64,000 nt of DNA from assembly GCA_964435035.1 (NCBI GenBank), contig CAYSXR010000001.1:144192-208191 (forward strand), in the 5' to 3' direction. Source of the stretch: an uncultured Gammaproteobacteria bacterium (GTDB lineage Bacteria; Patescibacteriota; Patescibacteriia; Magasanikbacterales; UBA922). The notes under the pieces are model-generated. The model was not told where the DNA came from, did not search any database, and saw nothing but the letters and a program-made list of their open reading frames with translations. Of the stretch, positions 36,827-61,854 are shown piece after piece. How positions within the stretch are numbered: the first letter of the stretch is position 1; every line of letters starts with the position of its first letter. Made by a program: the position numbers and the translations under genes.

Positions 36827-36906
36827 AAGACCCTTAGTGTGTCCGGCGCGGCAAGGGAGCGAAGGAGGGGGCGCTCCCGCCATCGCCAAACACACTAAGA
36901 GTCTTT
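36827..36906 (-). terminator. large GC-rich hairpin + T-run, probable terminator of infC-rpmI-rplT operon
   Basis: 16-bp imperfect inverted repeat AAGACCCTTAGTGTGT / ACACACTAAGAGTCTT enclosing a nested GGGAGCG..CGCTCCC stem; on minus strand followed by TTTTGTTTTG. Confidence 0.5.
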
Positions 36907-37151
36907 AAGTGTTAGTATACAAAATAGTACCATCCCAGAATAAGACGTGTCAAGGGTAATTAAGCGAAAAAAATTCTTATTTTTAGGGGATTGTAAACTG
37001 TATACTAATTAGATAGTAAAAAATTTTTAAGTATTAGTTTATGTAATAATTTCACCGGGAATATTACGTATGAAGTGTTGCTGTGTATAAAATAATCCCC
37101 CAGAATGGGGGATTAGATACTGTTGAGGAATTTTGTACTGCTTGTAAGTGT

Positions 37152-37496
37152 TTAGGAAACTGATTTTACTATTGCAGCAAATACTTTTGGATGTTTTTCA
37201 GCAATCTGTGAGAGTACTTTGCGGTCAAATACCATATCATTCTTTTTCAATGCTCCCATGAATTTACTATAAGACATTCCGTGCTTGCGGATTTCAGCAT
37301 TGATCTTTACCTGCCATAGATTTCGTGTCGTACGTTTTTTTACTCGACGATCACGATATGCGTGTGCTCCAGCTTTAGTATCTGCAGTTTTTGCAAGTTT
37401 CAATAATTTTTTGCGACCACCTTCAAATCCTTTCACCCGTTTGAGAATGTTTGAACGTCTTTTGGCATGTCGCATTCCTCGTTTTACTCGTGGCAT
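37152..37496 (-). CDS. rplT: 50S ribosomal protein L20
   Basis: MPRVKRG...RRxxxLKxxKGFxG...AHxYRDRRxKKR hallmark L20 N-terminus; infC-rpmI-rplT order. Confidence 0.9.
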   Translation of the reverse strand: MPRVKRGMRHAKRRSNILKRVKGFEGGRKKLLKLAKTADTKAGAHAYRDRRVKKRTTRNLWQVKINAEIRKHGMSYSKFMGALKKNDMVFDRKVLSQIAEKHPKVFAAIVKSVS

Positions 37497-37523
37497 ACTA
37501 TCTTAAATAAGTCTTTTAATGGG

Positions 37524-37742
37524 TTAGTTTGAAGCAGCGTAGGGGAGTGCTTTCAATACGGTGCGCTGCAACGGGGTAGAAGTACTTCGATCCCGGCGTT
37601 TGTTTCTGCGTACGCTTCCTGATTCACGGGAATTAAAATGGTCCTGTCCGTCAGTGCGTTTGAGGACTTTTAATCCGTTCTTTCGTGATTTCTTTACTTG
37701 AAATCTTTTTGCGGTTGCTTTATGAGTTTTGAGTTTAGGCAT
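37524..37742 (-). CDS. rpmI: 50S ribosomal protein L35
   Basis: MPKLKTHKATAKRF start typical of bL35; 72 aa; position between infC and rplT. Confidence 0.85.
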   Translation of the reverse strand: MPKLKTHKATAKRFQVKKSRKNGLKVLKRTDGQDHFNSRESGSVRRNKRRDRSTSTPLQRTVLKALPYAASN

Positions 37743-37797
37743 ACAAATTCATTATGTGCGGGCTAGTATATAGTATTTTGTGTCAGGAGTCAAGAGC

Positions 37798-42070: not shown

Positions 42071-42185
42071 TAAATTCAAAACTTAAATCTCAAAATTCAA
42101 AACTGGAATTCAAAATTCCGGGAGATGAAAGTTTTAAGATTTAAGTTATAGTTTTGAACTTTGAGTTTTACATTTTGAATTTAAT
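42071..42185. repeat. AT-rich palindromic repeat (caaaactt/aagttttg family), full-length copy
   Basis: about 115-bp imperfect inverted repeat; related shorter copies at 51671-51726 and 61795-61845. Confidence 0.6.
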
Positions 42186-42220
42186 ATATTATTTCCATCA
42201 CTATTTAAACTTAGTCTACT

Positions 42221-43393: not shown

Positions 43394-46240
43394 GTGTGTA
43401 TGGTAGCGATATCCCCCGAACAATCAGTACCGCAAGAATCACGAAAGAAAAAAACACCTGATACGGTAAAAATAGAGAAATATAGTGAGGTGTGGGAGCA
43501 TGCAAAAAATCTGGAGGGTAAAATAAAAAAACTCAAAGAACATGCAATCGATGCGGATGAAATCGGAGAAATAGAAGGTATTCTCAAAGATGCAAAAGGA
43601 TATTTTTCTAGATTTGGAGAGAAAAAAGATAAAGGCAGAAGTGTTGCTCAGCTTGAAGAGAGGCGTAAGGCTGCAGTAGAAAAACTTACTGACCTTAATC
43701 GGCGCATGGTGTCGATGCTTGAAAAATTAGGACAACCAATTCCTAATACTCTTTTGTCGTACAAAGACAGTGGATTTGTTGATATTGTAAAAGAATCTAA
43801 TAAAGAAGGGTTGTCTGAAGAAAAAAAAGAAGAAGTGTCTGAAGTTGTGGGTGCTCATATAATTCAGCCCCCTGAAAATTATTCTAAAGAGTCATTGGGT
43901 GATTCAGAAATTGGTGGTGTGAATAGTATCGAGGCGCCAGAGAAGAAGGAAGAAGTGTTGGTTTCTGCCGAAGAGTCGCCTGTAAATGTACGAGAGGAAT
44001 CATCCTCACCTGAAACACCAATAGAAGATGTTATCAAGATTTCTTCAGGAGGAAAAACATATGAATTCGGCTGGCACGAACAGGTGGTTTACACTACTGC
44101 AAAGGGTAAGCAGCTTGAGTGTATTGTGCTTGGAAAATCAAATGATGAGAATAAGCCGGGGCTTATTTTGAAAGATCTTGAAAAAGGAAAAGTATTTGCT
44201 CTTGGTGCAGATGCGGTTGCAAAACGGGTACATGTTTCTGATGGTGAAATAGTTTCTCCACGTGTAGAAAATAATAAGGCCGATTCTGGTCAATCTGCTG
44301 AAGGTGAAGATATTGATAGAGAAGAAAAAGCTGCTCTTGAAAAAATGAAAAAAGACCAGAGGGAAGTAGAAGAGAAAAAAGCTCAAGAATTAAGTGAATT
44401 ATTAGCACAAGCTGGAAAGTCTGCCGAAGATGACACTTCATTTGTACACACAAGCACAGATGAGAGGGGAAGTTTCGATCAGAAGATGGTTGATAAACTT
44501 GTAGCTGATGGATCGATTGAAAAAATTAACACGTTATTGAAAAATAAATCCGAGGTGTGGGTACAGGAAGATGGTAAATGGTATCAGGGTGTAGTGCAAG
44601 ATATTACCGGAGCACAGGTGGGTGTTACTGTAGGAGAGGAGGGTCGAGAGAAAAAATATTTCTATGTGGATGCTGAAGAATTTTTGGGCATGCAGGATCG
44701 AGCGAAAAAATTGTTGAAATACAAAAAAGAATTAGAGCTTCCCTCGGTGGTGGTGGACACCGAATTCCTCGCTCGTCCAGATACGATCACCAAAGGTGAA
44801 ATTTTTACTCCTCCGACCGAGAGAAAGACCGTACCTGACGTGCCTCTAGTGAGTATTGATACTCCATTGCCGGTACGAGAACGAAAAACCTACCCAGAAG
44901 TTTCAGAAAAAAAAGCAATACAGATGATTCAATCAGTCGCTGAAGAATTTGAAAAAACATGGAAAGGAATGCGCATGATGACGACAGAAAAACAAAAGAC
45001 CGGATGGCTCCAGAGTAAGGAAGTTGAACGAGAGATGACGGTGACAGAAAAAAAGGAGCAATTAGAAGCGTGGCTTGATATGGTGGAGCAGGCATTTGAT
45101 TCACTCGACAAGCAAAAAGATGGGACACACATGGAAAAACCAGTACTCATGTGGCATCAGGCACAGGCATTAATTCGCGCATTAGAAAATGAACTTCGGT
45201 ATACAGAAGAAACGAATAAAAGTGAAGAGTGGGATCACGCACTTGAGGCTTTTAGTAGTATAATTAATGAAAGAAGCACACGTCTCAAGGAAAAAAAGAA
45301 AGGGTCATTGATTGCACCGTGGGCCATGAAAACGACACTTGCTGCCTTGGGTGCTTTTGCAATCGGAAATGCAACAAACAATCGAATAGAAGATGTGGCT
45401 GCAGTGAGTGAACGATATATGGAAGCAGGTGAAAAAAAATATGAATTACCCAGAGAAGAACATACGGGTGATGCACAGAGAAATATGCTAGATTTTGTAA
45501 TTAATATGAATCGGATGATAAACGAGCCCACACTTTCGATAACACCCGTTGCAATTGATGCTCGACTTACTCCACAGATCAAGGATAAAATATCAGGGAA
45601 AGTTCCGGGTTTGGCTGGTGCAGAAATAGCATCTGATGGAAAATCAGTTACATTGACTTTTGATAATAACCAAACAGTTGAAAGTCGTCCTGAAAAAATA
45701 CAAAAGTCGGGTCGCGATAGTTGGAAACTGAAGACAGCTGAGAAAAAGGGTCCGGAGTATGGCGAACAAATGTTGAGAGAATTAAGGAAAGTATTGGGTG
45801 AAGTAAAGCAAGAGTTTCCTGATATGTTTCGTGGACCAGAATCATCTTCCAAGCAAAAGAGAGTAGTAAGAACAGTAGTACAGGCCGAAAAGAAATTACG
45901 AGAAGCAGAGGTAGTAATACCGAGAAGTGGTGAGGCGAGAAGACAGTTGGAACAAGTAAAACAGGTGTTGGAACAAGTAAAACCAGGACTCGAATCTATT
46001 TCAAAAGAGATTGTAGATGAGATTAAGGCAGAGGATCTCGAATTGCCACAGGATGTATTTGTGCGTTTTAGTCGAGAGGTTACGTTTGATCCAAAGGCAG
46101 ATGCTCTATTTGAGGAATGGGGAAATGCACGAAATTCTCTCAAAGCAGCACAGGAAGCAGGAGATCAAGAGGGGGTAAAGAAAAGTAACGAGGAGTTGCG
46201 TAAGGTTATTGAAAAAATAACGAAAGAGTATAGTAAATAA
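43394..46240 (+). CDS. hypothetical large charged/coiled-coil protein (948 aa)
   Basis: long uninterrupted ORF with Lys/Glu-rich low-complexity segments; host-like codon usage. Confidence 0.5.
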   Translation: MCMVAISPEQSVPQESRKKKTPDTVKIEKYSEVWEHAKNLEGKIKKLKEHAIDADEIGEIEGILKDAKGYFSRFGEKKDKGRSVAQLEERRKAAVEKLTDLNRRMVSMLEKLGQPIPNTLLSYKDSGFVDIVKESNKEGLSEEKKEEVSEVVGAHIIQPPENYSKESLGDSEIGGVNSIEAPEKKEEVLVSAEESPVNVREESSSPETPIEDVIKISSGGKTYEFGWHEQVVYTTAKGKQLECIVLGKSNDENKPGLILKDLEKGKVFALGADAVAKRVHVSDGEIVSPRVENNKADSGQSAEGEDIDREEKAALEKMKKDQREVEEKKAQELSELLAQAGKSAEDDTSFVHTSTDERGSFDQKMVDKLVADGSIEKINTLLKNKSEVWVQEDGKWYQGVVQDITGAQVGVTVGEEGREKKYFYVDAEEFLGMQDRAKKLLKYKKELELPSVVVDTEFLARPDTITKGEIFTPPTERKTVPDVPLVSIDTPLPVRERKTYPEVSEKKAIQMIQSVAEEFEKTWKGMRMMTTEKQKTGWLQSKEVEREMTVTEKKEQLEAWLDMVEQAFDSLDKQKDGTHMEKPVLMWHQAQALIRALENELRYTEETNKSEEWDHALEAFSSIINERSTRLKEKKKGSLIAPWAMKTTLAALGAFAIGNATNNRIEDVAAVSERYMEAGEKKYELPREEHTGDAQRNMLDFVINMNRMINEPTLSITPVAIDARLTPQIKDKISGKVPGLAGAEIASDGKSVTLTFDNNQTVESRPEKIQKSGRDSWKLKTAEKKGPEYGEQMLRELRKVLGEVKQEFPDMFRGPESSSKQKRVVRTVVQAEKKLREAEVVIPRSGEARRQLEQVKQVLEQVKPGLESISKEIVDEIKAEDLELPQDVFVRFSREVTFDPKADALFEEWGNARNSLKAAQEAGDQEGVKKSNEELRKVIEKITKEYSK

Positions 46241-46416
46241 CATTTTGATATAGAGAAGAAAAATCACTGATAGCAGTCGGTGATTTTTTGTTTTTTTAAG
46301 GTGTTTGGGCTAGAAATGTGCTAAAAAGTATGAGAGTAGTCAAAAGGGGCTACACCCTTTACTTTTTGTCAAAATTTGCATAAAGTACGTTAATGCTTAT
46401 TGTGGCAGGGGTATAC

Positions 46417-46445
46417 TTGACAAAAAGGTATAAATATGCTATAGT
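46417..46445 (+). promoter_or_regulatory. extended -10 promoter TTGACA-N17-(TGc)TATAGT
   Basis: exact -35, 17-bp spacer with TG at -15/-14, -10 TATAGT; AT-rich host-like context immediately upstream of the first high-GC gene. Confidence 0.55.
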
Positions 46446-46655
46446 ACTGCGTTATTTCAAAAGCCCTACATAGGTCTTCGAAATAGCAATCCAGGGGCCC
46501 CATCAGAGAGGATATGTGTCCCTTCTGATGGAGTCCCTGGTCTAGGAGCTCCCACTGTGGCCCGTTCGGGCAATAGTGAGAGCCTTAGGCTCATTACAAT
46601 CGAAGAAGCTAGAACACGTGCCCCTATGAAAGGGGTGTAAACGAGGAGATCAGAA

Positions 46656-48104
46656 ATGATTGACCGCAACAAGAAGAGCAACAAGAAGAGCACGCCCGTG
46701 AAGGGCGGCGCTGCGGCGAACCCGCAGGCGATGGCAACCGTGGCGTCTCACAAGGACGACACGGCTCAGATCGATGTGGTGGTCGAGACCAATCCCGAGG
46801 CCGACAAGGTCGAGGGTGAGGTCAAGGCCGATGAAGAGGCGAAGGTCGAAGAGACCGTCGCCACCGCCCCGACCGAGAACGTCGAGAAGAGCGAGGAGCC
46901 GGCCGTTGTGGTCGACCCCGAGCCCGAGCTCGAGCAGAAGCGGAACTTCCGTAAGGAAGACCTCCGCCTCCGGTACAACGACAACCCGCAGGTGCTGCTC
47001 ACCTCCGCGGATCTCAGCGAAGAGGACAAGGTCCTCATCGGCGAGATCGCGAGCGAGCAGAACCAGGTCGTCCGCGACTATGCCGCGCTGGCACAGGAGC
47101 TGACCGACGAGAAGGACCAGCTCGAGCAGAAGCTCGACGCGACCAACTCCAAGCTGGGGAACGTCACCAACCTCATCGCGACCACGGTCAAGGAGACCGT
47201 GGGACAGGTGGACAAGGAGACGTCGGCCTTGATCGAAGGTCTGAAGATCGAGATCGAGGGCGTCATCGGCAAGGGTAACGGCGTGAAGAACGCCGTCACG
47301 AAGATCGGGGACGATGTCAACAAGGACATCGGCTCGCTCAAGGGTCAGGTCAACGCCAACGCCAAGTCGGTCAACGACAAGGTCGATGGGATGGCCGCGA
47401 TGCTCGGGAAGATCGACGAGAAGATCTCCGAGATCAAGTCCCCGCCGCCCCCGCAGCAGCCGCCGGCTCAGTCCAGCACCACCCCGTCCTCCGGATCCTC
47501 CGGGTGGCCGTGGGTCGTGGCCGTGGGCATCTTGCTCGCGGCCGTGATCGCGGTCTTCCTCCTGAACAAGGATGTGAAGATCGAGGTCCAGGTGCAGCAG
47601 CCGGCGGTGAACACCGTGAAGGGTGTGGTGCCGCCGGTGGTGGACAACGCTCTCGGGGTGACCTCGCAGCAGGTGACCCCGGGTGGACCGGGGAATCCGA
47701 TCGTGCCCACGGTGGTCGGTGCCACGTCCGAGGATCCCTGCAAGGGGAAGGTCGGTGGGGAGCTCGGGTCGTGTGTCCTTCAGCTGGAGAAGTTCCGGCC
47801 GAAGGGGTTCACTGATGCGCACTGGAACACGGTCGTCGAGACCTTCCAGAACGTCATCATGGTCCCCTTGAGCGTTCCGTTCAAGGACATCAAGCACCAC
47901 GACAAGGCCATCGAGCACAACATGAGGAAAGACGCGGCACTGCAGGCGTGCGTCGACGCATACGTCTTGAAGACGGATGATGTCGAGTCGAACGTCCGGT
48001 GTCAGCGGGCGGTCGATTGTCTGTTCACTTCGGTGGACGAGGCAGCACAGTGCTACATGACGCATACGCGCTCGATCACGGGCGTTTTGGTCACTGTCAA
48101 CTGA
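46656..48104 (+). CDS. high-GC island gene A: membrane protein with cytoplasmic acidic/coiled-coil N-domain, one TM, extracytoplasmic C-domain with 6 Cys
   Basis: GC about 63-66% with strong GC3 bias; SD GAGGAG; TM WPWVVAVGILLAAVIAVFLL preceded by PPPPQQPP linker. Confidence 0.65.
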   Translation: MIDRNKKSNKKSTPVKGGAAANPQAMATVASHKDDTAQIDVVVETNPEADKVEGEVKADEEAKVEETVATAPTENVEKSEEPAVVVDPEPELEQKRNFRKEDLRLRYNDNPQVLLTSADLSEEDKVLIGEIASEQNQVVRDYAALAQELTDEKDQLEQKLDATNSKLGNVTNLIATTVKETVGQVDKETSALIEGLKIEIEGVIGKGNGVKNAVTKIGDDVNKDIGSLKGQVNANAKSVNDKVDGMAAMLGKIDEKISEIKSPPPPQQPPAQSSTTPSSGSSGWPWVVAVGILLAAVIAVFLLNKDVKIEVQVQQPAVNTVKGVVPPVVDNALGVTSQQVTPGGPGNPIVPTVVGATSEDPCKGKVGGELGSCVLQLEKFRPKGFTDAHWNTVVETFQNVIMVPLSVPFKDIKHHDKAIEHNMRKDAALQACVDAYVLKTDDVESNVRCQRAVDCLFTSVDEAAQCYMTHTRSITGVLVTVN

Positions 48105-48159
48105 ACCTCAACCCAACTAGTCCGACCTCCCTCGGGAGGTCGGACACAGGAGAACAGAC

Positions 48160-49095
48160 ATGAAGCAGCTCGTCGCGAAGATCGTGGTTTATTACATCGT
48201 ACTTCTCTCGGCGTCGGCCTTCGGCTCGACGCCGAACCCCGGTGACCAGTTCGACCTGATCCAGGGAGGGATCCCGGCGAAGGTCGAGGTCACGCAGCAG
48301 GAGATCAAGGCGATGGACACGTCCATCGACCAGCTCCTGAAGCGCACCGGCGGTCTCCTCAAGAAGGACGCCGAGCTCAAGAAGGAGCTCGAGGACCTCA
48401 AGAAGGAGCTCGAGGACCTCAAGAGCAAGCTCGACAAGGTGGTGAAGCCGGGTGATCTCACGGTCATCCGAGTGGATCTGGGAAGGTTGTGGACGCAAGT
48501 CAACAACCATGGACAGCGCCTCACCGAGCTCGAGCAGGACGTCGAAGATCTGAAGAGGAGCGACAAGGCTCAGGACGATCGACTCGGTGATCACGACCAG
48601 AAAATCGAGGACATCAACAAGCGCCTCGATCGAGGTCTCGGAGTGAAGTTCGGCATCGGAGCCTATGGCGTCTACGGGACGCAAGGCTCGATCAACGGTG
48701 GAGCTTCGGCTCGGCTGAGGATCCCGCTGTCCGGTGGATGGCAAGCGATCGTCAATGGCGGAGTCGGCGGCAACCATCAGGGAGCTTCAGGATTCGCCGA
48801 TCTGTCGGTCGGCTACCAGTTCGCGAGCGGCATCTACCTGGGGGCAACCCTCGGTATCGACGCCAACTGCGACGGTATGTGCACCAGGCTCCTCACGGAG
48901 ATCTGGGGCGCAGGTCCCGACATCGGCTACCTGTCCGACGATGGACTCTTCATCCGGGCTCGTGTGCTCTTCGGGAGCGAGTGGATCAAGGGTCCGACGA
49001 TGCAGATCGAGTACCCGGATCGTACGGTCTTCAAGACCGACGAGTCCCGGGAGTTCGGCATCTCGGCTTTGATCCAGCTCGGTCACGAGTTCTAG
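48160..49095 (+). CDS. high-GC island gene B: secreted coiled-coil protein with Gly/aromatic-rich C-terminal domain ending in Phe (OMP beta-barrel-like)
   Basis: signal peptide; KKELEDLKKELEDLKSKLDK repeats; C-terminal alternating hydrophobic pattern and terminal ...LGHEF; followed by GGGGAGTgtctctACTCCCC hairpin. Confidence 0.6.
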   Translation: MKQLVAKIVVYYIVLLSASAFGSTPNPGDQFDLIQGGIPAKVEVTQQEIKAMDTSIDQLLKRTGGLLKKDAELKKELEDLKKELEDLKSKLDKVVKPGDLTVIRVDLGRLWTQVNNHGQRLTELEQDVEDLKRSDKAQDDRLGDHDQKIEDINKRLDRGLGVKFGIGAYGVYGTQGSINGGASARLRIPLSGGWQAIVNGGVGGNHQGASGFADLSVGYQFASGIYLGATLGIDANCDGMCTRLLTEIWGAGPDIGYLSDDGLFIRARVLFGSEWIKGPTMQIEYPDRTVFKTDESREFGISALIQLGHEF

Positions 49096-49346
49096 ACTTC
49101 AAGATTCGGGGAGTGTCTCTACTCCCCGGACCCCTCACCTCGCCGACTTCAAGGCAGAAGGGATAAGACAATGAGACAAACACTCGAGTAAACGGCGTGG
49201 TCGCACAACGCGGCCCCCAATACTGGAGCATGGGCGATATTTCGAAAGAAATGTCGCCCCTCGCACAGCGTATATCAGTCTCTGGTATGCGATGACGAGA
49301 AAAGCATCTCACGTAAATCCCGACTAAATCGGGACACGTGACAAGC

Positions 49347-49375
49347 TTGACAAACGAGAGTATTTATGCTATACT
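49347..49375 (+). promoter_or_regulatory. extended -10 promoter TTGACA-N17-(TGc)TATACT
   Basis: same cassette as at 46417 and 63780; lies in an AT-rich spacer inside the high-GC block, about 310 nt upstream of gene C start. Confidence 0.55.
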
Positions 49376-49685
49376 AAGCTGTTACAAAATAAAGAAGTGC
49401 CATGGGAAATCTCGATGTAGTCGGGGTATCTATGGTAGATCGTCATGCACTGCATGGTGGTCCATTGAACCTTACAATATATGCGAAATGTATAAAAAGC
49501 TTGAAAGGCTAGAAAGGCCGGAAAGGCTTGAAATGCTAGAGAACGTATCTTGTGACGTGAAGAAAGAAATTTTCAATAAGAATTTTTTCTTAGCGTCACG
49601 AGGAGTTCTCAGGCGTGAAAACTTCTCGTGTGGTACACGAGGAAGCAACAACAAAACCCCGATTGAATCGGGGAGGAGAAGAGTC

Positions 49686-51452
49686 ATGAAGAAGTTCAAC
49701 AAGTTCCTGTTCGTCGTCATGTTCATCTCGTTCGTCGCGGCCATCACGGGCTGCGCCGATCACGGTGGCGAGACGGTCGTCGTCAAGGGTGACGATGGGG
49801 AGAGCGTCAAGCTCTGCCCCGAGGAGCATCAGTGCTCCTCGGCCGAGTTCTGCAACTCGCAGGGTCTCTGCGTCATCCCCGGTGCCAACGGCACCAACGG
49901 CGAGGACTTCGAGCGATGCTCGAATAGTCGTGGTGACTGTGTCGGTAACGAGCTCTGCAACTCGCAGGGCGTGTGTGTGCTCGAAGGTCCGCAAGGGCCG
50001 GCGGGGGAGTCCTGTACCGTGTCGACGAAGGTCGACGGGTGCTTCTTCCTCTACTGTGGCGCAAGCGTCACGGAGATCTGCGACGGCGAGGACGGTGTGT
50101 CCTGCACGGTCGCAGGGCAGCCGGACGGCAGCGCTCAGGTCGAGTGCTCGGACGGTTCGTTCGCGACCATCCTCCCCGGACAAGACGGCGAGGACGGTCT
50201 CAACGGCACGAGCTGCACGGCCTCGACGGTCAAAGGTTGCCTCGTGGTGACCTGCGGAACGCAGTCGACGGAGATCTGCCCGGAGGATCTTCCGGATCCC
50301 GAGCCGGTCGACGGCTGCCAGAAGGACTCGGACTGCACGGACGGCAGCGAGTGCACCAACGACATCTGCGATCTCAACACCGGCACCTGCCGGTACGTGT
50401 CGCAGGTGTGTGATGACGGCGTCGCCTGCACCAACGACTGGTGTGACACGAACGGCTACTGCCGTTCGACCGCGGACAATGATCAGTGCAGCGGCGGCGA
50501 CTTCTGCTTGCCGACCGGTTACTGGTTTTGGTCCTCGGCGGTGGGTTCTGAGGAACTCGCTGACGGAGGCTGTTACGAGTGCCGCTGGGACTCTGATTGT
50601 GCCGACGGCGACGCGTGTACGGTCGACACCTGCGACGCGGGTGTTTGCAAGAAGGAAACGCGCGAGTGCCCCACGGGTGCGACGTGCGTCGAGTACTCGA
50701 GCAACTACTACGACGACTCGGAGTGGAACTACGTGTGCCAGGACAATCCGTCGTGCAGCAACAACAGCCAGTGCGACGACGGCAAGTACTGGACGACGGA
50801 TGCGTGCGTGGCCGGGGAGTGTGTCTACACCCAGGTGTCGTGCAACGACAACAACGCATGCACCGTGGACACGGTGAACTCGAGTGGGCAGTGCACCTAC
50901 GCCCAGATCTCGTGCGACGATGGCAAATCCGCCACGGTCGACACGTGCTCTGCGAATACGGGGTGCGTACACACGCCGGTGAACACCGGCTGCGAGCACG
51001 ATCTCGATTGCGATGACGTCGACGGTACGACCACGGACCTGTGCGAGGACAACGGGAGCTGTACACATACTCCCAATGCCCAGTGCAAGTCCCTGACGGT
51101 CAAGGTCGGCTGGGCCATCCTGTGGTCGCGCGGTCCCGAGATCGGAACCACCAATGTCCCGATGGGCAACTGGCGTAGCTGCGAGGAAGACGAGGCGGAG
51201 AACTGCCGTACCATGTCGTGGTGCGGTGACGACATCGTGGAGTTCAATGTTCAGCAGATGCCGAACGTGGCAGGTGCCGACTGGCTCGTGAAGAACGAGA
51301 AAGGCGACAGCCCTTGCACGTCGAACGCAGATGCGACCTTGAACTACACGCCCGCTGATCTCTTCGTCGGGGCGACGCCGGTGCAGAAGGGCTGTTCGCT
51401 CTTCTGCGACCCGAACGGGTACACCAACTACACCTGCGATTCCGCGGAGTAG
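49686..51452 (+). CDS. high-GC island gene C: Cys-rich lipoprotein (about 589 aa, many CxxDxCD / CDDG repeats)
   Basis: ORF track extends to 49338 but that stretch is AT-rich leader containing the promoter; GGAGGAG SD before ATG at 49686; lipobox-like FVAAITGC then ADHGG; more than 60 Cys. Confidence 0.6.
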   Translation: MKKFNKFLFVVMFISFVAAITGCADHGGETVVVKGDDGESVKLCPEEHQCSSAEFCNSQGLCVIPGANGTNGEDFERCSNSRGDCVGNELCNSQGVCVLEGPQGPAGESCTVSTKVDGCFFLYCGASVTEICDGEDGVSCTVAGQPDGSAQVECSDGSFATILPGQDGEDGLNGTSCTASTVKGCLVVTCGTQSTEICPEDLPDPEPVDGCQKDSDCTDGSECTNDICDLNTGTCRYVSQVCDDGVACTNDWCDTNGYCRSTADNDQCSGGDFCLPTGYWFWSSAVGSEELADGGCYECRWDSDCADGDACTVDTCDAGVCKKETRECPTGATCVEYSSNYYDDSEWNYVCQDNPSCSNNSQCDDGKYWTTDACVAGECVYTQVSCNDNNACTVDTVNSSGQCTYAQISCDDGKSATVDTCSANTGCVHTPVNTGCEHDLDCDDVDGTTTDLCEDNGSCTHTPNAQCKSLTVKVGWAILWSRGPEIGTTNVPMGNWRSCEEDEAENCRTMSWCGDDIVEFNVQQMPNVAGADWLVKNEKGDSPCTSNADATLNYTPADLFVGATPVQKGCSLFCDPNGYTNYTCDSAE

Positions 51453-51670
51453 TCGTACCCACAAACATTTCGTGTAAAAGCTTTGAGTAGCCTAGCTACC
51501 AGACTCAAAGTTCAATCAACGTAGCGGGAGGGGGCACAAGCGTTCATCTGAATTGCGCAAGCGATTCAGTGACGAGTGCCTCCCTCCCATTCCAACATAT
51601 CTTTATCAAAATTCAGAACTCAGATTACAGTGAGAGACTAGTGAGTATTGGTAGAGAGATGTGGGGATGG

Positions 51671-51726
51671 AAAATTCAAAACTTAAAACTTAAAACTCAA
51701 AATTTAGATTTAAGTTGTGAGTTATT
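51671..51726. repeat. AT-rich palindromic repeat (short copy) inside high-GC island
   Basis: AAAATTCAAAACTTAAAACTTAAAACTCAAAA + TTTAGATTTAAGTTGTGAGTT; matches arms of the 42071-42185 copy. Confidence 0.55.
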
Positions 51727-51794
51727 ACAAACCCTTTCCATCATTATGATGGTTTCAATTCCCCTCAACCGCGACGACAGAAATGTCACGCGCG

Positions 51795-51821
51795 GAAAAA
51801 ACCCGCGCATGCGGGTTTTTT
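51795..51821. terminator. bidirectional hairpin terminator AAAAAACCCGCGCATGCGGGTTTTTT
   Basis: perfect GC stem flanked by A6 and T6. Confidence 0.6.
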
Positions 51822-51913
51822 AAATTCCATTACCTCGGGTATATCGTATAATGATGGTATATCTATGGTAGAGGAATTCTACACGCCAGTTCACAAAAAC
51901 CAGGAGGGGACAC

Positions 51914-52651
51914 ATGTTGGGTATGACGTTTCGTTTGTTTGTTTTCTGTCTCACCGTGTTCACCGCCGCATGCATCGAGGATATGCGGCGGGAGGAAGCG
52001 TCCATGGTCCAGGTCGATACGTCGACTGGCATCATGGATATGGTGGAGGAAGTCAAAGACGTACCAGATTCACGGGTCCGTGATCGGTATGATATCGAAT
52101 TTCCTCCTACAGCCGACGAGTGTGTCGTCGATGAATTCATCGCAGAGGGAAGCCCTTGCGATGATGGCGATGCATGCACGATCGATGTCTGTATCCAGGG
52201 CATGTGTCGTAATCGAGCTATCGACTGCGACGACGGAAATCCCTGGACGGATGACGAGTGCATCGTCGACACTGGGGCGTGCTCCAGTGTACATCGGGTG
52301 ACTCATTTCACCGTTCGCGCGGAGCGTCCGGGAAAGGTGAAGCTTTGGTATGGGAATCACACCGAGCCAGAGACCTATCCCATGAACTCGAGCTTCGAGA
52401 TCCAGAAGATGGATCTCTGCGTCGAGAACCGTGTGCTCACGCTCGCGGTAGAGGACGAAGAGTTCCCGGGAACCTACTGGGGTTGTAACCCTGGCCTTCC
52501 TTCGAAGAGGGAACTCGCAGTCGAGATCGACGGGGTGGACACGCCCGGTTATTTCGCTGCGGATCTCGGATGGGAGGTGCCCAACTCTGCGTGTGGTGGG
52601 AAGGGAGAGGGTGACCTCTACTTCTTGCGGGCGCAACTCGCATGTGACTGA
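51914..52651 (+). CDS. high-GC island gene D: Cys-rich lipoprotein (245 aa), paralog of C and E
   Basis: signal + lipobox-like FTAAC; CDDGDACTIDVCIQGMCRNRAIDCDDGNPWTDDEC repeats; C-terminal CNPGLPSK domain shared with gene E. Confidence 0.6.
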   Translation: MLGMTFRLFVFCLTVFTAACIEDMRREEASMVQVDTSTGIMDMVEEVKDVPDSRVRDRYDIEFPPTADECVVDEFIAEGSPCDDGDACTIDVCIQGMCRNRAIDCDDGNPWTDDECIVDTGACSSVHRVTHFTVRAERPGKVKLWYGNHTEPETYPMNSSFEIQKMDLCVENRVLTLAVEDEEFPGTYWGCNPGLPSKRELAVEIDGVDTPGYFAADLGWEVPNSACGGKGEGDLYFLRAQLACD

Positions 52652-52998
52652 TGACCGGGTGTCTCGCGAAGGATAGGATGGCGTATACGCTATGCTGTCC
52701 ACCTTCGCGAGCACCACTAATTCAACAAATAGAATTATATTGACAAAATACTCTTTTCCTGATATGTTGATACGATTGTATCTACGCATATCGGATATCT
52801 AGAGAGGTATCTGGTATGCGCCACTGGAGAATCATTCTCAAGTGTGTATGTTCATTATAATCACATAAGTTTTTTGTTCAGCTAGAGGATGGGTGCAGAT
52901 AGAGGTATATGTAACATATCTTGTATCGATAGCCACCCTCTAGCTGAGACACAGTGTCACTGCTGGAGTTCAACGGCCTCACAACGGAGGAAGGCCAA

Positions 52999-55041
52999 AT
53001 GCGTCTGAAGAACAACAACAACCGGATGTTCATCATCACGGTTGCCCTCGCCATGGGGTTCATGGCGGCGTGCACGGAACACGGCGGCGACGAGCCGATC
53101 GTGGTCGTGATGAAGGCGGACCTCGACCTCGACGAGGTCCCCAACAACGTCGACAACTGCCCGGGGGACAACAACCCCGATCAGTTGGACACCGACGGCG
53201 ACGGCATGGGCGATGCGTGCGACAACGACGTCGACGGCGACGGGGTCTTGAACCCCGCCGACAACTGCCCCGACAACTTCAACCCCGACCAGGCGAACCT
53301 CGACAAGGTCCTGGCCGACAGCGGCAACGTCACCGTGGTCGCGGATCTCTTCGGAGACGTCTGCGACAACGACGACGACGGCGACGTGGTCTGCGACCCC
53401 TGGCTCGGCGTGGACGGGTGGGAAGAATTCCATCCCGGTCAGGGCGAGACGTGTCAGGGCGAGGACAACTGTCCCGACGTCGCCAACGCCGACCAGGCGA
53501 ACCTCGACAAGGACTTCGAGGGCGACGTCTGCGACAACGACGTCGACGGCGACGGCGACCTCAACGGCGCAGACAACTGCCCGCTCGTGACCAACGCCGA
53601 CCAGGCAAACCTGGATCGGGACGACTGGGGCGACGCCTGCGACACCGACGACGACAACGACAGCTTCTGCGACGAAGCTGCCCCCGTCTCGATGCCGCGA
53701 AATGCGCCCGCGATGCCCCTCTGCGAGGGCGAGGACAACTGCCCCCGCTTCAAGAACGCGGGACAGGAAGACATGGACGAGGACGGCATGGGCGACGTCT
53801 GCGACGACGACTGCGACGGGGACCTCTACCCCGAAGCGTCGCCCTGGGATTTCCCCAACCTGTCGTGCTTCGTGTATTGCAATCCGGAAGGTCCGGGAAC
53901 CGAGTGCGACGACGCGAACACGTGCACCACGGACACCTGCAACGGGCAGGGCGTTTGCGAGTACGTGTTCACGCAGTCCGAGACGTGCGAATGCGTCTTG
54001 GACTCCGACTGCGAGCCGACCGACGCCTGCGTCACCGAGATGGCGTGCGTGGAAAACACGTGCGTCGAGACCGGATGGAAGGTCCTGACCGACGGGGACA
54101 ACTGCACCATCGACACCTGTGATCCCTCGACCGGCGTGGTCACCCACGTCGAGAAGGACTGTGGTGGGGACCTCTGCGGAGGAGGCCTCTCGTGTAACCG
54201 CATGACCGGAGAGTGCAGCACACCCGTGCCGCAAATTCCGATCAACGACAGCAACGCCTGCACCACCGACGCGTGCGATCCCGAGACCGGCGTGGTCACC
54301 CACGTCGCGATCGTCTGCGACGATGGGAACGCATGCAACGGCACCGAGACGTGCAACCCGGCTTCCGGGTGCGTCGCGGGTACGCCGCTCACGTGCGATG
54401 ACGGAAGCGTCTGCACGATCGACAGTTGTTCGGCAAACACCTGCCAACACGTGGCGGTGACGACGAACGACAACAACATGTGCACCACCGACACCTGCGA
54501 TCCCGAGATGGGGGTGCAGCACACGGCGGTGGTGTGCAACGACGTGAACTCCAACACCACCGACACCTGCGATCCGGCGACGGGTTGCGTGCACACGCCG
54601 ACGGGGAACTGCACGGTCAACGCGGATTGCAACGACAGCAATCCCCTGACCTACGACACCTGCGTCGCGCTCGTCTGCCAACATGTGGAAGGTGTCCGCG
54701 TGCAGGTCTCGTCGACCGACACGTCGGAGACCTGGCAGGTCAATTTCTACTACAACGGTACGACGATCTCCGGCAACCTGCCCTTCGACGGGACCTTGCC
54801 GAAGACGCTCGCATGCAGCTGGGGCGCCGACATCGCCGTCAACCGTCCGAGCACGAACTTGTTCTTGGACTGCAACCCGGGGTTCCCCTCGAAGTCCACC
54901 CTGACCGTCATGGTCAATGGTGTCACGAAGGCGAACGACTTCCAGGTTCGTTCGCAGGCATGCGACGGCGCTCCGCCGGGCAACCTGTGGCTCTCCGACG
55001 AGAGCGGTGACAACGACCTGGGATGCCCCGCGGCACCCTAG
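52999..55041 (+). CDS. high-GC island gene E: lipoprotein with ~7 thrombospondin type-3 (Ca-binding) repeats and ~8 CTxDxCD Cys-rich repeats
   Basis: SD GGAGG then ATG at 52999 (ORF track starts 52954); lipobox-like FMAAC followed by TEHGGDEP (compare gene C ADHGGETV); TSP3 consensus DxDxDGxxDxxDNCPxxxNxDQ repeated from about 53150 to 53830; C-terminal CNPGFPSK domain. Confidence 0.65.
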   Translation: MRLKNNNNRMFIITVALAMGFMAACTEHGGDEPIVVVMKADLDLDEVPNNVDNCPGDNNPDQLDTDGDGMGDACDNDVDGDGVLNPADNCPDNFNPDQANLDKVLADSGNVTVVADLFGDVCDNDDDGDVVCDPWLGVDGWEEFHPGQGETCQGEDNCPDVANADQANLDKDFEGDVCDNDVDGDGDLNGADNCPLVTNADQANLDRDDWGDACDTDDDNDSFCDEAAPVSMPRNAPAMPLCEGEDNCPRFKNAGQEDMDEDGMGDVCDDDCDGDLYPEASPWDFPNLSCFVYCNPEGPGTECDDANTCTTDTCNGQGVCEYVFTQSETCECVLDSDCEPTDACVTEMACVENTCVETGWKVLTDGDNCTIDTCDPSTGVVTHVEKDCGGDLCGGGLSCNRMTGECSTPVPQIPINDSNACTTDACDPETGVVTHVAIVCDDGNACNGTETCNPASGCVAGTPLTCDDGSVCTIDSCSANTCQHVAVTTNDNNMCTTDTCDPEMGVQHTAVVCNDVNSNTTDTCDPATGCVHTPTGNCTVNADCNDSNPLTYDTCVALVCQHVEGVRVQVSSTDTSETWQVNFYYNGTTISGNLPFDGTLPKTLACSWGADIAVNRPSTNLFLDCNPGFPSKSTLTVMVNGVTKANDFQVRSQACDGAPPGNLWLSDESGDNDLGCPAAP

Positions 55042-55226
55042 AACTTCTCCTGCGACGACTGCAGGAGCATCTCGAAGTGAACGTGTGATTCGCTTCTGTA
55101 GGTGAATGTTCGAAGACAATCACACAAACCGGGGGAAGTGCGCTCGCTACTACAGCGACCGCTTCCTCCCCTCTACTCTGAATTCAAGTACGATCTTGAG
55201 AATAGAGTAGAAGGGCACGCTAGAAT

Positions 55227-55248
55227 AACCGCACTATGCGGTTTTTTT
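55227..55248 (+). terminator. rho-independent terminator (CCGCActaTGCGG + T7)
   Basis: hairpin followed by TTTTTTT at the right edge of the high-GC block. Confidence 0.55.
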
Positions 55249-55253
55249 GTTAT

Positions 55254-55355
55254 GTCATTCCGAGCGAGTGCACCCGAGCCGAGGAATCTTTCCTGTATAA
55301 GACCATGTAAGAAAGATTCCTCGACTCCCTCGGAGACTCGGTCGCTCGGAATGAC
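55254..55355. repeat. hairpin repeat element copy A (termini GTCATTCCGAGCGA ... TCGCTCGGAATGAC)
   Basis: perfect 14-bp terminal inverted repeats plus inner GAGGAATCTTTCCTG/CAGGAAAGATTCCTC stem; two further copies at 61105-61246 and 61583-61719. Confidence 0.7.
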
Positions 55356-55416
55356 TATCGTCACTTTTTCTTTTTTTAATTTCCCCCTTGCTTGTGATAT
55401 ACTTATCTAGAATTTT

Positions 55417-61074: not shown

Positions 61075-61104
61075 AGTAAAAGCTTAAAACGCAAAAGTAT
61101 TAAT

Positions 61105-61246
61105 GTGTCATCCCGAGGGAGGAGTGCATCCGACGATTCGAGGGATCTTTCCTGCATAAGGCTGATTAGGAAAAATGTATTTAAAGCTTAGTAAGGACTT
61201 GGTAGGAAAGATTCCTCGACTCGGGTGCACTCGCTCGGAATGACAC
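61105..61246. repeat. hairpin repeat element copy B (degenerate left arm, intact right arm ...TCGCTCGGAATGAC)
   Basis: right arm CTCGACTCGGGTGCACTCGCTCGGAATGAC nearly identical to reverse complement of copy A left arm; lies 42 bp upstream of GIY-YIG gene. Confidence 0.6.
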
Positions 61247-61287
61247 ATTAAGTAATTGTATTGGGTGGTAAAAAGTAAGGGGGTAGT

Positions 61288-61566: not shown

Positions 61567-61582
61567 TGGTGTGATTGGTATT

Positions 61583-61719
61583 GTCATTCCGAGCGACCGA
61601 GTCTTCGAGGGAGTCGAGGAATCTTTCCTGTATAGTATTCTGTAAAAAAATGTAACTATAGTTTGGTAAATACTTTGCAGGAAAGATTTCTCGACTCGGG
61701 TGCACTCACTCGAAATGAC
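61583..61719. repeat. hairpin repeat element copy C (GTCATTCCGAGCGACCGAG... / ...CACTCGAAATGAC)
   Basis: left arm matches reverse complement of copy A right arm almost exactly; starts 17 bp after GIY-YIG stop. Confidence 0.65.
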
Positions 61720-61794
61720 AGTGAATAGCTCGGAATCAGGTCACAGAAGTTGCAAATATGCTTGGATCAAGTATCATTACCTTGAAGAATAAGA

Positions 61795-61845
61795 AGTTTT
61801 AAATTTTTAGTTTCAGTTTTGAACTTTGAGTTTTAAGTTTTGAGA
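61795..61845. repeat. AT-rich palindromic repeat, half copy
   Basis: AGTTTTAAATTTTTAGTTTCAGTTTTGAACTTTGAGTTTTAAGTTTTGAG nearly identical to right arm of 42071-42185 copy. Confidence 0.55.
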
Positions 61846-61854
61846 TAGATATCT

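Follow-up and report, generated by a model that had tools for sequence, protein, structure and literature searches.

Among described systems, the closest analogue of the locus reported here appears to be vls, the antigenic-variation locus of Borrelia, which comprises vlsE and silent cassettes. In Borrelia burgdorferi s.l., the vls cassettes have 49.1% G+C in a 28.6% genome, and the anomaly is conserved between species despite sequence divergence, which has been read as selective maintenance (PMC11499132). The vls locus has a strong GC skew (0.52) with a G-rich coding strand, and is organised as a single expression site with a promoterless array of silent cassettes on a linear plasmid. A second point of comparison is the genomic island acquired by horizontal gene transfer (HGT), where a sharp break in GC, codon usage and dinucleotide signature is limited to accessory surface genes.

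The locus lies in a 64-kb window (the whole stretch of DNA analysed, 64,000 nucleotides) and carries five genes, A to E, on the + strand at 46656–55041. It shares the sharp compositional break with HGT islands, and it resembles vls as a hypervariable, recombining surface locus that keeps a GC excess across species. Unlike vls, it has no GC skew (∼0–0.1), its bias falls mainly on third codon positions, and there is no sequence homology between the two. In contrast with a single expression site and its array, there are five to six distinct genes, chromosomal and syntenic, with three or more near-consensus promoters (D lacks one of its own and B uses that of A), and no cassettes are found within the 64-kb window. 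It is probably a native hypervariable surface-protein locus in which G/C-ending codons are actively maintained, and the cluster looks like a set of native, lineage-specific surface genes of a Candidatus Magasanikbacteria (CPR/Patescibacteria) clade. The host, suspected from the start to be CPR-like, is a CPR bacterium: its housekeeping proteins cluster at at least 90% identity with NCBI-labelled Candidatus Magasanikbacteria proteins.

The compositional oddity that the first-pass annotation had pointed out in this low-GC genome is real by windowed GC, GC3 and dinucleotide signature. In 1-kb windows, GC is 0.49–0.65 from 46 to 55 kb and 0.34–0.47 outside this range, with steps at ∼46.5 kb and ∼55.2 kb in a 200-nt profile; genes A–E have GC 0.56–0.64 and GC3 0.65–0.89, and the GC3 of 29 flanking genes is 0.26–0.42. 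All five genes had been called strongly high-GC, which holds for A (GC 0.627, GC3 0.88), B (0.605, 0.81), C (0.626, 0.84) and E (0.644, 0.89); D (0.561, 0.65) is far less extreme. Codons in A–E end nearly always in G or C (AAG 94%, ATC 97%, TTC 93%), ATA, TTA, CTA and AGA are absent, T-ending codons are likewise avoided, and A is the least frequent third-position base. The bases at 4-fold sites are preferred in the order C>G>T>A; the host's order is A>T>G>C. The preference is for G/C endings generally and does not single out an optimal codon in each family. The bias is centred on third positions (GC3 up to 0.89, GC2 ∼0.37), and GC1 is raised too (0.60–0.62 versus ∼0.52). The dinucleotide signature of the coding sequences stands at delta* 219, with host chunks at 49 ± 15. 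The spacers are host-like in composition, as had been claimed: they dip to GC 0.36–0.46 in the 200-nt profile, their GC is 0.42–0.47 with the exception of the 55-nt A–B gap (0.60), and their delta* is 78. The amino-acid composition of the A–E proteins is likewise of the low-GC, host-like type and not Myxococcota-like, with GARP at 0.21–0.26 (host 0.23) and K/(K+R) up to 0.79.

The spacers also carry near-consensus sigma-70 promoters. The A–B operon promoter (46417–46445, + strand; TTGACA-17-TATAGT with an extended −10 TG) has 11/12 consensus matches and is invariant across six orthologous loci. The promoter of C (49347–49375, + strand; TTGACA-17-TATACT with TG) also has 11/12 matches and is conserved in orthologs, and that of E (52740–52768, + strand; TTGACA-17-TATGTT with TG) has 10/12, its TTGACA being conserved in L009 and L011. 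Gene D has no consensus promoter, with a possible −10 (TATAAT) at 51847–51852. The description of these promoters as host-type stands, with a host counterpart of the same type (TTGACA-N17-TATAnT, extended −10 TG) at 63780.

The genes are flanked by leaders and trailers that are strongly conserved, structured and without a match in Rfam. The ∼200-nt leader of A (46452–46655, + strand), delineated by ortholog alignment and RNAalifold, has three hairpins and a small hairpin immediately 5′ of the Shine-Dalgarno (SD) sequence; RNAalifold gives 57 pairs and −63 kcal/mol, with only two covarying pairs, and Rfam returns no match at E≤10. This leader occurs once per locus and is nearly invariant between lineages with A proteins 45–67% identical. 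A ∼210-nt trailer with several hairpins follows B (49097–49305, + strand) and is kept in five loci (L007, L008, L009, L011 and L015), one copy in each. The leader of C (49376–49685, + strand; alignment of five loci, plus L015) has a conserved block at ∼49540–49640 and a hairpin that abuts the SD. The trailer of C (51458–51821, + strand), mapped by alignment, repeat families D10, I5 and I18 and a terminator scan, contains a hairpin (51483–51510), a conserved block (∼51586–51672) and an inserted AT-rich host repeat (51672–51713), and ends in a bidirectional terminator (∼51787–51821). The trailer of the last island gene (55042–55249, + strand; alignment and terminator scan) is ∼165 nt long, precedes a terminator at 55227–55243, and aligns with its L013 counterpart downstream of gene F despite different preceding genes. 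The host's AT-rich palindromic repeat that had been reported from this block is found at 51672–51713; at the downstream edge, a MITE/REP-like palindromic host repeat has inserted (55253–55358, with other copies at 61100–61251 and 61580–61720), which has roughly 50% GC and does not fit that description. This element is absent from the L013 orthologous junction and does not belong to the conserved locus.

The encoded products form a coherent set of secreted and membrane proteins, as first proposed, the repeats of E being recognised by Pfam and the barrel of B by structure prediction. Gene A (46656–48104, + strand; 482 aa) encodes a bitopic coiled-coil membrane protein with no family in Pfam or NCBIfam: a disordered Lys-rich N-terminus and a long cytoplasmic coiled coil lead to a TM helix at ∼284–303, beyond which lie a Pro/Gly linker and a small helical ectodomain that contains Cys. 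Its AF2 model is of low confidence (pLDDT 44), with helices at 89–260, 286–303 and 374–475. Gene B (48160–49095, + strand; 311 aa) encodes a secreted coiled-coil protein with an OMP-type barrel. A signal peptide and a coiled coil (∼38–137) precede eight long antiparallel amphipathic strands at residues 163–310 (predicted pLDDT 80–92), so that B is predicted to end in an OmpW/OmpA-like 8-stranded β-barrel, unexpected in a CPR bacterium. The predicted strands, the signal peptide and the C-terminal Phe, which is missing in some orthologs, are features of the OmpW, NspA, OmpA/OprF N-domain and OmpX-like barrels. Unlike these small barrels, B has a coiled coil of ∼100 residues ahead of the barrel, and at the sequence level it matches none of the OMP families in Pfam or NCBIfam. 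To our knowledge, CPR bacteria are generally described as being without an outer membrane. The same has been stated in a recent preprint (bioRxiv 10.64898/2026.03.03.709456).

Genes C, D and E encode paralogous lipoproteins, three here and four in a relative, with Cys-rich and TSP3 repeats and a common C-terminal domain. C (49686–51452, + strand; 588 aa), characterised by paralog alignment, has the lipobox ITG/C followed by ADHGG, Cys-rich CxxDxCD-type repeats and the C-terminal domain common to C–E; it scores 26.8 bits against Dicty_CTDC, just under the Pfam cut-off of 27, and has orthologs in L009, L011 and L015. D (51914–52651, + strand; 245 aa) is a short paralog with a lipobox-like TAA/C, one or two Cys repeats and the C-terminal domain, and also falls just below the Dicty_CTDC cut-off (21.2 bits). 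E (52999–55041, + strand; 680 aa) has the lipobox MAA/C followed by TEHGG, TSP3 Ca-binding repeats, at least five Cys-rich repeats and a C-terminal domain ending in DNDLGCPAAP, a C-terminus found also in the L011 ortholog. The Pfam matches anticipated by the first-pass annotation are obtained with E, which passes the thresholds for both TSP_3 (78 bits versus 25, E=3.6e-22) and Dicty_CTDC (96 bits versus 27, E=7.6e-28) and in this is like bacterial TSP3/Cys-rich (Dicty_CTDC-type) surface proteins. A post-lipobox DHGG motif had been ascribed to all three lipoproteins; it is recognisable in C (CADHGG) and E (CTEHGG) and not in D (CIEDMR). The C-terminal domain has essentially no relatives outside the clade: in a phmmer search of D against 1.84 billion representative proteins, nearly all of the best 150 listed hits match only repeat residues ∼77–125, and one (P0184) covers the domain.

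In independent assemblies, at least five further Candidatus Magasanikbacteria lineages show this mosaic with the same host genes around it, which excludes a chimera and makes a recent import unlikely. Wherever a contig extends upstream of A, a low-GC host gene or spacer is joined to the GC3-rich A and B. L009 and L011/L013 carry the whole cluster, and in L011/L013 its neighbours on either side are the same host genes; L015 covers only the end of A, B, the B–C spacer and the start of C. L005–L008, L012 and L015 derive from other samples, and Logan contigs from the same samples reproduce 49097–55344. A related 224-kb contig contains both junctions, its downstream junction being without the repeat element. 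As had been argued, the block belongs physically to this genome: independent Logan contigs reproduce C–D–E plus spacers, and other assemblies run from host gene through spacer into A and B. The neighbourhood is one of cell-envelope genes. Upstream are a Wzz-like gene and, as immediate neighbour, the gene of a large Lys/Glu-rich protein (948 aa, 43394–46240); downstream are GT4, Wzy_C, GT4 and GHL15/FG-GAP genes.

Across the lineages examined, each gene keeps to its own range of GC3: 0.85–0.90 for A, 0.74–0.82 for B, 0.76–0.84 for C, 0.59–0.65 for D (0.59–0.62 in its orthologs) and 0.78–0.89 for E. Host-gene dS among these lineages is 0.4 to >2, up to synonymous saturation, and dN/dS is 0.39–0.76 in the island versus 0.05–0.34 in host genes. 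The pS of A has a plateau at 0.34–0.39 for all pairs, and C↔G changes make up 38–67% of the 4-fold differences in A and 4–12% of those in host genes. Compared with L006, the window is 100% identical to ∼46550 and then patchy (63–87%) with indels, so that the N-terminal half of A is a mosaic of 63–87% identity, and distances among A alleles disagree with the host tree. This gene-specific, steady GC3 amid fast protein divergence and allele recombination points to an ongoing force that maintains G/C-ending codons. The inverted codon preference is confined to coding sequences and is not a leftover donor signature. Since unconstrained sites in the spacers reach only 0.45–0.48 GC (the value for variable columns, beside ∼0.88 at 4-fold sites), the force acts on coding sequence; these columns are nevertheless ∼10 points GC-richer than host intergenic DNA (0.375), and a weak regional component therefore exists.

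Transcription is predicted to proceed from the near-consensus sigma-70 promoters and to yield transcripts with long conserved structured leaders and trailers. The maintaining force would be selection acting either on translation or on the coding mRNA, given that unconstrained sites in the spacers are spared and that GC3 appears to follow promoter quality (n=5 genes); expression control via codons rare for the genome and transcript stability are candidates. High expression alone is insufficient for the bias, as GC3 is just 0.34–0.40 in the only ribosomal/translation genes examined, namely L20, IF3 and the unannotated 71-aa ORF between them in L005. The products may form a variable attachment/surface apparatus of the episymbiont, attachment being suggested by the domain types.

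The undifferentiated preference for G/C endings looks more like compositional drive than classical translational selection. A possible, though rather doubtful, alternative is accordingly a hot spot of homologous recombination or gene conversion, where GC-biased heteroduplex repair or a conversion machinery that requires GC-rich DNA pushes free coding sites to G/C, and amino-acid-determining sites and functional RNA elements resist the push. Such a drive would account for the mosaic divergence from L006 beside perfectly identical flanks, allele distances at odds with the host tree, the elevated GC1 and the slight GC enrichment of the spacers; the internal repeats of C and E are possible conversion substrates, and vls is a precedent in that its GC excess has been attributed to the conversion process (PMC11499132). 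It is difficult to reconcile with variable, apparently unconstrained spacer sites that stay so far below the neighbouring 4-fold sites, with the absence of a vls-like skew, or with the absence of silent cassettes and partial copies of A/B from the 64-kb window. Moreover, the 4-fold differences in A plateau at ∼0.35, not at the ∼0.6 that interchangeable C and G would predict. A literature search for bacterial biased gene conversion of comparable size found none, and we know of no proposed effect of this size in bacteria.

The first-pass annotation had favoured import from a Myxococcota- or Bdellovibrionota-like diderm of high GC with subsequent domestication, the GC being a residual donor signature. 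This origin now appears very improbable. It would suit the atypical coding composition and dinucleotide signature, as well as a repertoire typical of diderm envelopes (the B barrel, lipoproteins, TSP3 and Cys repeats), and E has a weak partial match to MtsC of Myxococcus; however, at 114 bits this match is far under the model cut-off of 350, E has no MYXO-CTERM, and no donor homologs are found past generic repeats. Among 5.8 billion proteins, A has only four relatives and so does B; those with retrieved DNA are all GC3-rich, and every contig with flanking sequence has a low-GC context. C, D and E match other lineages through generic repeats only, and best matches in high-GC diderms, which had been expected, are not seen beyond these. 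The TSP3/Cys repeats of E occur in bacterial and archaeal proteins by the thousand, CPR and DPANN proteins among them, and viral and JGI metagenome scans are negative. The homolog counts for A–E should be taken as lower bounds, and the apparent absence of donors read accordingly, because gene callers often choose the antisense ORF. The GARP of E resembles that of TSP3 proteins from Paceibacterota, Pseudoalteromonas and Electrothrix (0.22–0.24), unlike those from Myxococcota, Bradymonadia and Anaerolineae (0.31–0.36). Unlike HGT islands, the locus has no mobility genes, and its borders have no integrase, flanking tRNA or direct repeats; it occupies the same place in all relatives sampled, its amino-acid composition is recipient-like, and GC3 shows no decay or amelioration despite saturated host dS, each gene's own level being conserved between species. 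An ancient diderm ancestry of the B barrel fold is possible and would not explain the present composition.

Long ORFs run antisense to the block genes at 46650–48065, 49596–51464 and 52957–55119. Were they real, staying open would force the sense strand to avoid third-position A, which is indeed the least common base there, and the ORFs recur at full length in orthologs and are sometimes annotated by gene callers. The idea is nevertheless scarcely credible: an antisense stop in that frame requires a sense TTA, CTA or TCA codon, and codon usage predicts <1 per gene where 0–1 is observed (B and D carry one each). The avoidance of T-ending codons is not required by such a model, and it is the sense strand that has the signal peptides, TM helix, barrel and Pfam repeats. 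These ORFs were thus rightly dismissed as artefacts at the outset. A chimera, in which repeats shared with a CPR contig led to the joining of a contig from a high-GC organism, was already argued against in the earlier reading; it has a negligible probability and is effectively refuted: short-read Logan contigs do end inside the repeat at 55253–55358 and one begins exactly at 49097, but the same junctions recur in independent assemblies from other samples and species, the L013 downstream junction exists without the repeat, and single Logan contigs cover host-like spacers inside the block.

The upstream edge of the locus is marked by the intrinsic terminator of the upstream host gene (46258–46289, + strand), which the terminator scan resolves as a 14-bp stem with a T-run after it; across this region, the window and L006 are 100% identical.

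Genes A-E, on the plus strand at 46656-48104, 48160-49095, 49686-51452, 51914-52651 and 52999-55041, form a native, conserved and hypervariable surface-protein locus in which G/C-ending codons are actively maintained against the genomic background. In 1-kb windows, the GC content of this island (46-55 kb) is 0.49-0.65, against 0.34-0.47 elsewhere in the window, and a 200-nt profile resolves four plateaus of high GC with dips of 0.36-0.46 between them. GC3 is 0.88 in A, 0.81 in B, 0.84 in C, 0.65 in D and 0.89 in E, with overall GC of 0.627, 0.605, 0.626, 0.561 and 0.644, respectively. The first-pass annotation had noted that composition and codon usage set the block apart from its genome, and they do (GC3 0.65-0.89 versus 0.26-0.42 in 29 flanking genes); its description of all five genes as GC-extreme suits the block overall, but D falls well short of the other four. 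Nearly all A-E codons end in G or C (AAG 94%, ATC 97%, TTC 93%), ATA, TTA, CTA and AGA are absent from island codon usage, and the order of bases at 4-fold sites, C>G>T>A, is the exact inverse of the A>T>G>C of the host genes. An antisense stop in the frame concerned corresponds to a sense TTA, CTA or TCA, so the codon bias itself leaves long antisense ORFs (<1 antisense stop is expected per gene), which had rightly been read as an artefact.

The spacers between the genes have a GC content of 0.42-0.47 and a host-like dinucleotide signature (78 vs 68 ± 25), whereas the signature of the island coding sequences is strongly deviant (delta* 219 vs 49 ± 15 for host chunks). A tetranucleotide comparison had been suggested as a guide to foreign origin; run with dinucleotides instead, it does set the coding sequences apart, but this is not counted in favour of a foreign origin, since the signature of a coding sequence follows from its codons. 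A promoter scan found TTGACA-N17-TATAnT promoters with an extended -10 TG in three spacers (46417, 49347 and 52740), and the same type at a host gene (63780), in line with the host-type promoters proposed.

The same locus recurs in related contigs. Only four relatives of A were found in 5.8 billion proteins, with contigs from four other samples (L005-L008). Those reaching upstream of A run through a low-GC host gene or spacer (host-gene GC3 ∼0.30-0.35) into an A ortholog with a GC3 of 0.85-0.90, and B has a GC3 of 0.74-0.80 wherever it is present in L005-L008. In L005, L006, L007 and L012, the island comes after the host gene that precedes it in the window, while L009 and L011/L013 (two parts of one 224-kb contig) contain the entire cluster. 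These last two contigs, of 29 kb and 224 kb, came from a scan of genome collections and show the entire arrangement: upstream lie the genes for IF3 and SmpB, three other conserved genes, one Wzz-like gene and that for the large Lys/Glu-rich protein, followed by A, B and then C-like, D-like and E-like genes (the E-like gene of L009 is cut by the contig end), each island gene being GC3-rich with lower-GC spacers between. Downstream in the 224-kb contig, the last island gene is followed by a conserved ∼165-nt trailer and then by the same genes as in the window, GT4, Wzy_C, GT4 and GHL15/FG-GAP. One more lineage, represented by a JGI contig (L015), shares the B trailer and the promoter and leader of C; its C protein starts ...GGCADHGG. 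GC3 is reproducible gene by gene across species: 0.85-0.90 for A, 0.74-0.82 for B, 0.76-0.84 for C, 0.59-0.65 for D and 0.78-0.89 for E.

The gene content of the C/D/E family differs between species. A sixth GC3-rich lipoprotein paralog, F, of 756 aa with the putative lipobox SISA|C, lies at 18338-20608 in L011 (∼4869-7139 in L013) and is not found in the window. Public gene calls in orthologous islands are antisense at 8467-9987 (-) in L012 and at 2208-4454 (-), 4914-5690 (-) and 5952-6659 (-) in L013, so that protein databases lack the true proteins of these islands. For A and B of the window, too, the contig index has no record of the exact products, probably because gene callers chose other starts or the antisense ORF. 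As gene callers often annotate the antisense strand, the family is hidden from protein databases and homolog counts are lower bounds.

The possibility that the block is an assembly chimera is rejected, since the upstream and downstream junctions are both recovered in independent assemblies of other samples and species, and the earlier claim that the block is physically part of the genome is upheld. Within the same sample series, independent Logan assemblies agree with 49097-55344 and 51625-55355 at every base, in the spacers as well as the genes. The Logan contigs end inside a palindromic element at 55253-55358, an ordinary repeat-induced break given that the element recurs at 61.1 and 61.6 kb. 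This MITE/REP-like element of ∼105 nt (TGTCATTCCGAGCGAGTGCACCCGAG...) has three copies in the window (55253-55358, 61100-61251 and 61580-61720); it is missing from the orthologous downstream junction in L013, which makes it a lineage-specific insertion, and it is not AT-rich, a correction to the earlier description of the palindromic repeat. The host is a CPR bacterium, judging from an exact-sequence cluster look-up, which puts the window on an NCBI contig of 276,756 bp: its pyruvate kinase and phosphoglucomutase, a P-type ATPase, a GT4 and a protein of 251 aa fall, at ≥90% identity, into clusters with proteins assigned to Candidatus Magasanikbacteria by NCBI. The MAG contigs of L009 (CAZMEW010000013.1) and L011/L013 (CAYUTO010000002.1) are titled 'uncultured Gammaproteobacteria'. 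Both titles appear to be wrong in the light of the Magasanikbacteria protein clusters, as the L011 contig encodes housekeeping proteins ≥90% identical to those of Candidatus Magasanikbacteria MAGs and L009 has the clade-specific synteny.

Recent import from a high-GC diderm donor, for which Myxococcota or Bdellovibrionota-like sources had been suggested, is likewise rejected. The locus shares atypical composition and codon usage with recently acquired islands, but lacks their patchy distribution, close donor homologs, mobility signatures and amelioration. For B, as for A, a search of 5.8 billion proteins gave no more than four relatives, and the matches of both are all of their own family, an absence of donor homologs that is subject to gene callers missing some family members. 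The thousands of matches to E are confined to its TSP3 or Cys repeats (12-53% of its length), and nearly all listed matches of D among 1.84 billion representatives fall on a ∼45-residue Cys repeat, one covering the C-terminal domain. The NCBIfam model of the Myxococcus cell-cohesion protein MtsC (NF047638) scores 114.5 bits against E, below its cut-off of 350, in a partial match to the TSP3 repeats only. In amino-acid composition, the island proteins are like those of low-GC organisms, with GARP of 0.21-0.26 (host 0.23) and K/(K+R) up to 0.79. The TSP3 proteins that E resembles are those of Paceibacterota, Pseudoalteromonas and Electrothrix (GARP 0.22-0.24, Ala 0.06-0.08), not those of Polyangiaceae, Bradymonadia, a MYXO-CTERM protein and Anaerolineae (GARP 0.31-0.36, Ala 0.12-0.14). 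GC3 shows no decay: A has a pS of 0.34-0.39 in every pair and an unchanged GC3, although the dS of host genes, measured from the window, is 0.4-0.9 to L011, 1.1-1.7 to L005 and >2 to L009. C<->G exchanges make up 38-67% of A's 4-fold differences, compared with 4-12% in host genes, so the sites turn over inside the G/C class. There are no integrase or transposase ORFs in or beside 46.2-55.4 kb, no flanking tRNA target (the closest lie at 16.6 and 36.5 kb) and, in the repeat analysis of the window, no direct repeats flanking the block. JGI metagenome scans with A protein patterns and with an invariant 21-mer of the leader gave no match, and neither the leader core nor B found anything in scans of viral contigs, so that there is no sign of a phage vehicle.

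The proteins themselves change rapidly. The window and L006 are 100% identical over 45600-46550 (host-gene sequence, the promoter and the greater part of the leader), fall to a patchy 63-87% with indels in the N-terminal half of A, and return to ∼99% beyond it, save for a 72% patch in the coiled coil of B. A tandem CTTGAGGTCCTCGAG repeat (minus-strand reading) at 48388-48423 lies in this coiled-coil region and coincides with the 72% patch; repeat-mediated variation is therefore likely in B. A has a dN/dS of 0.52-0.76, B of 0.39-0.75 and E of 0.43, against 0.05-0.34 in host genes, and A distances contradict the host tree, L005 being nearest to the window for A and L011 for host genes. DGR-type mutagenesis was dropped as a source of variation: there is no template/variable repeat pair and no reverse transcriptase in 13 Pfam-scanned window proteins, and DGRs do not raise GC3.

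The main rival to selection is a recombination-coupled drive that keeps GC3 high. Patchy divergence, high dN/dS and the conflict between A and the host tree keep this explanation alive, and it has a precedent in Borrelia vls, where a variable locus for surface lipoproteins keeps its GC high (49.1% vs 28.6%, with a GC skew of 0.52; PMC11499132). As in vls, the GC of the island is far above that of the genome and is kept across species (PMC11499132). Unlike vls, the island is without marked strand asymmetry, its GC skew of -0.04 to 0.11 in 1-kb windows being lower than that of the flanks. The 64-kb window contains no partial copies of A or B that could serve as silent cassettes. The mosaic between the window and L006 fits cassette conversion or allelic exchange alike. 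In cross-species alignments of the spacers, the variable, presumably least constrained columns have a GC of only 0.45-0.48, beside adjacent 4-fold sites at ∼0.88 and host intergenic DNA at 0.375. Regional mutation bias or locus-wide biased gene conversion should enrich such spacer sites far more, so selection on the coding sequence, acting through the mRNA or translation, is favoured over recombination-coupled drive as the maintaining force.

Under such selection, G/C-ending codons could, for example, control expression as codons that are rare in this genome, or serve transcript stability. High-expression codon adaptation was considered and dropped. In AT-rich bacteria, the optimal codon of a two-fold pair does not usually end in G, and L20 and IF3 have a GC3 of only 0.34-0.40; this modest value and the undifferentiated preference for G or C speak against classical translational optimisation. 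The promoters of A, C and E score 10-11/12, with GC3 of 0.84-0.89, B is co-transcribed with A (GC3 0.81) and D is without a consensus promoter (GC3 0.65). This rough ranking of GC3 with promoter quality is only suggestive, as it involves five genes. Literature searches on GC3 or codon anomalies in Patescibacteria or Magasanikbacteria, and on large bacterial gBGC effects at surface loci, turned up no description of the locus.

The untranslated flanks of the genes are more conserved than the proteins that they border. The A leader is ∼200 nt long (window 46452-46655; L005 9796-10004; L008 628-837; L009 9794-10004; L011 9789-10004) and nearly invariant where A proteins share 45-67% identity. It occurs in a single copy per locus, and its predicted fold has three hairpins and an SD-proximal hairpin; covariation support is minimal (2/57 pairs) because the conserved elements hardly vary. 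Conserved and structured trailers follow B (∼210 nt, 49097-49305), C (51458-51672, in blocks, with conserved blocks in the C leader too) and the last gene (∼165 nt, 55042-55210). The last trailer is conserved though the gene preceding it differs, being E in the window and F in L013. Searches against Rfam 15 found nothing above noise at E≤10 in 46240-46700, the region of the A leader, and only tmRNA and two tRNAs at the gathering threshold in the whole window. The A leader and the trailers are candidates for new cis-regulatory RNAs.

In the A protein, a disordered, Lys-rich N-terminus is followed by long helices, a single TM helix and a small ectodomain that is helical and contains Cys; the AF2 model (five sequences, pLDDT 44) is of low confidence and too poor for searching, so that the fold search was made with B only. 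B is predicted to form a closed barrel of eight antiparallel amphipathic strands. Its best structural matches are OMPs, which by structural criteria places the modelled barrel in the OmpW/OmpA/NspA class; the predicted fold is common to B and these proteins, but sequence-family membership is not, as B matches no OMP family in Pfam or NCBIfam at E≤0.01. Against Pfam and NCBIfam, A and B gave only sub-threshold coiled-coil noise. A literature search on OMP-like barrels in CPR turned up no account of the locus, and a CPR pilus preprint is unrelated.

C, D and E are paralogs with putative lipobox-type signal peptides, Cys-rich repeats and a common C-terminal domain. Read by eye, the putative lipoboxes are ...AAITG|C in C, ...VFTAA|C in D and ...GFMAA|C in E, with LLLGA|C, SISA|C and MVG|C in orthologs. 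The motif said to follow the lipobox in all three, read here as (D/E)HGG, is present in C and E and absent from D. The expected repeat families were found in full for E alone, which passes Pfam TSP_3 (PF02412; 78.2 bits, cut-off 25, in three stretches) and Dicty_CTDC (PF00526; 96.4 bits, cut-off 27). C (26.8 bits) and D (21.2 bits) fall slightly under the Dicty_CTDC cut-off, and A-D have no TSP_3 match. The Cys repeat of D is matched by 1502 representative proteins in phmmer.

Neighbouring genes are envelope-related (a Wzz-like gene, GT4, Wzy_C, GHL15/FG-GAP), and a surface or attachment role of the locus is a reasonable reading of its gene content. Directly upstream lies a gene for a 948-aa Lys/Glu-rich protein (43394-46240) with no Pfam family, syntenic in all relatives. 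It is fast-evolving (dN/dS 0.22-0.34) with a host-normal GC3, and may be functionally tied to the locus.

It is very improbable that the locus is built to act on, or even in, the high-GC diderm host cell of an episymbiont. Several features are said to fit: codons in the rank inverse of the bacterium's own usage; universal consensus promoters, strong Shine-Dalgarno sites and nuclease-resistant structured UTRs; and lipoboxes together with an OMP-type barrel with terminal Phe, needing diderm machinery in an organism without an outer membrane. Were it true, B and perhaps the lipoproteins would be delivered into the host outer membrane as a self-supplied, Tir-like docking receptor; in a more radical version, genes or mRNAs would be transferred to the host and expressed there.

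The finding is real, and unusual for another reason than the one first proposed, namely the native maintenance of G/C-ending codons. Nature here provides a clean exception to the rule that equates atypical GC and codon usage with horizontal transfer: a 55-point GC3 excess is stably kept in native genes of a reduced genome, where ancestry is not what sets synonymous composition. In bacteria, the locus could help to tell apart biased gene conversion and selection at synonymous positions. As for CPR biology, it suggests that an uncultured clade has a conserved surface apparatus that evolves fast and recombines, and that includes a predicted OMP-type β-barrel where an outer membrane is unexpected. 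This apparatus is a concrete candidate for the interface, so far poorly understood, by which these episymbionts attach to their hosts. Comparable loci may hide in other low-GC genomes, the antisense strand being annotated by standard gene callers.

Two other features of the window were also recorded. An AT-rich 'TCAAAACTTAAAAC'-type repeat occurs in host intergenic regions (7943-7984, 42072-42201, 51672-51713 and 61794-61852), with one copy inserted in the C-D spacer that is missing in L011. The intervals 15239-16573 and 36567-37797, with GC of 0.47 and 0.39, each extend over >1.2 kb without an ORF of ≥150 aa.
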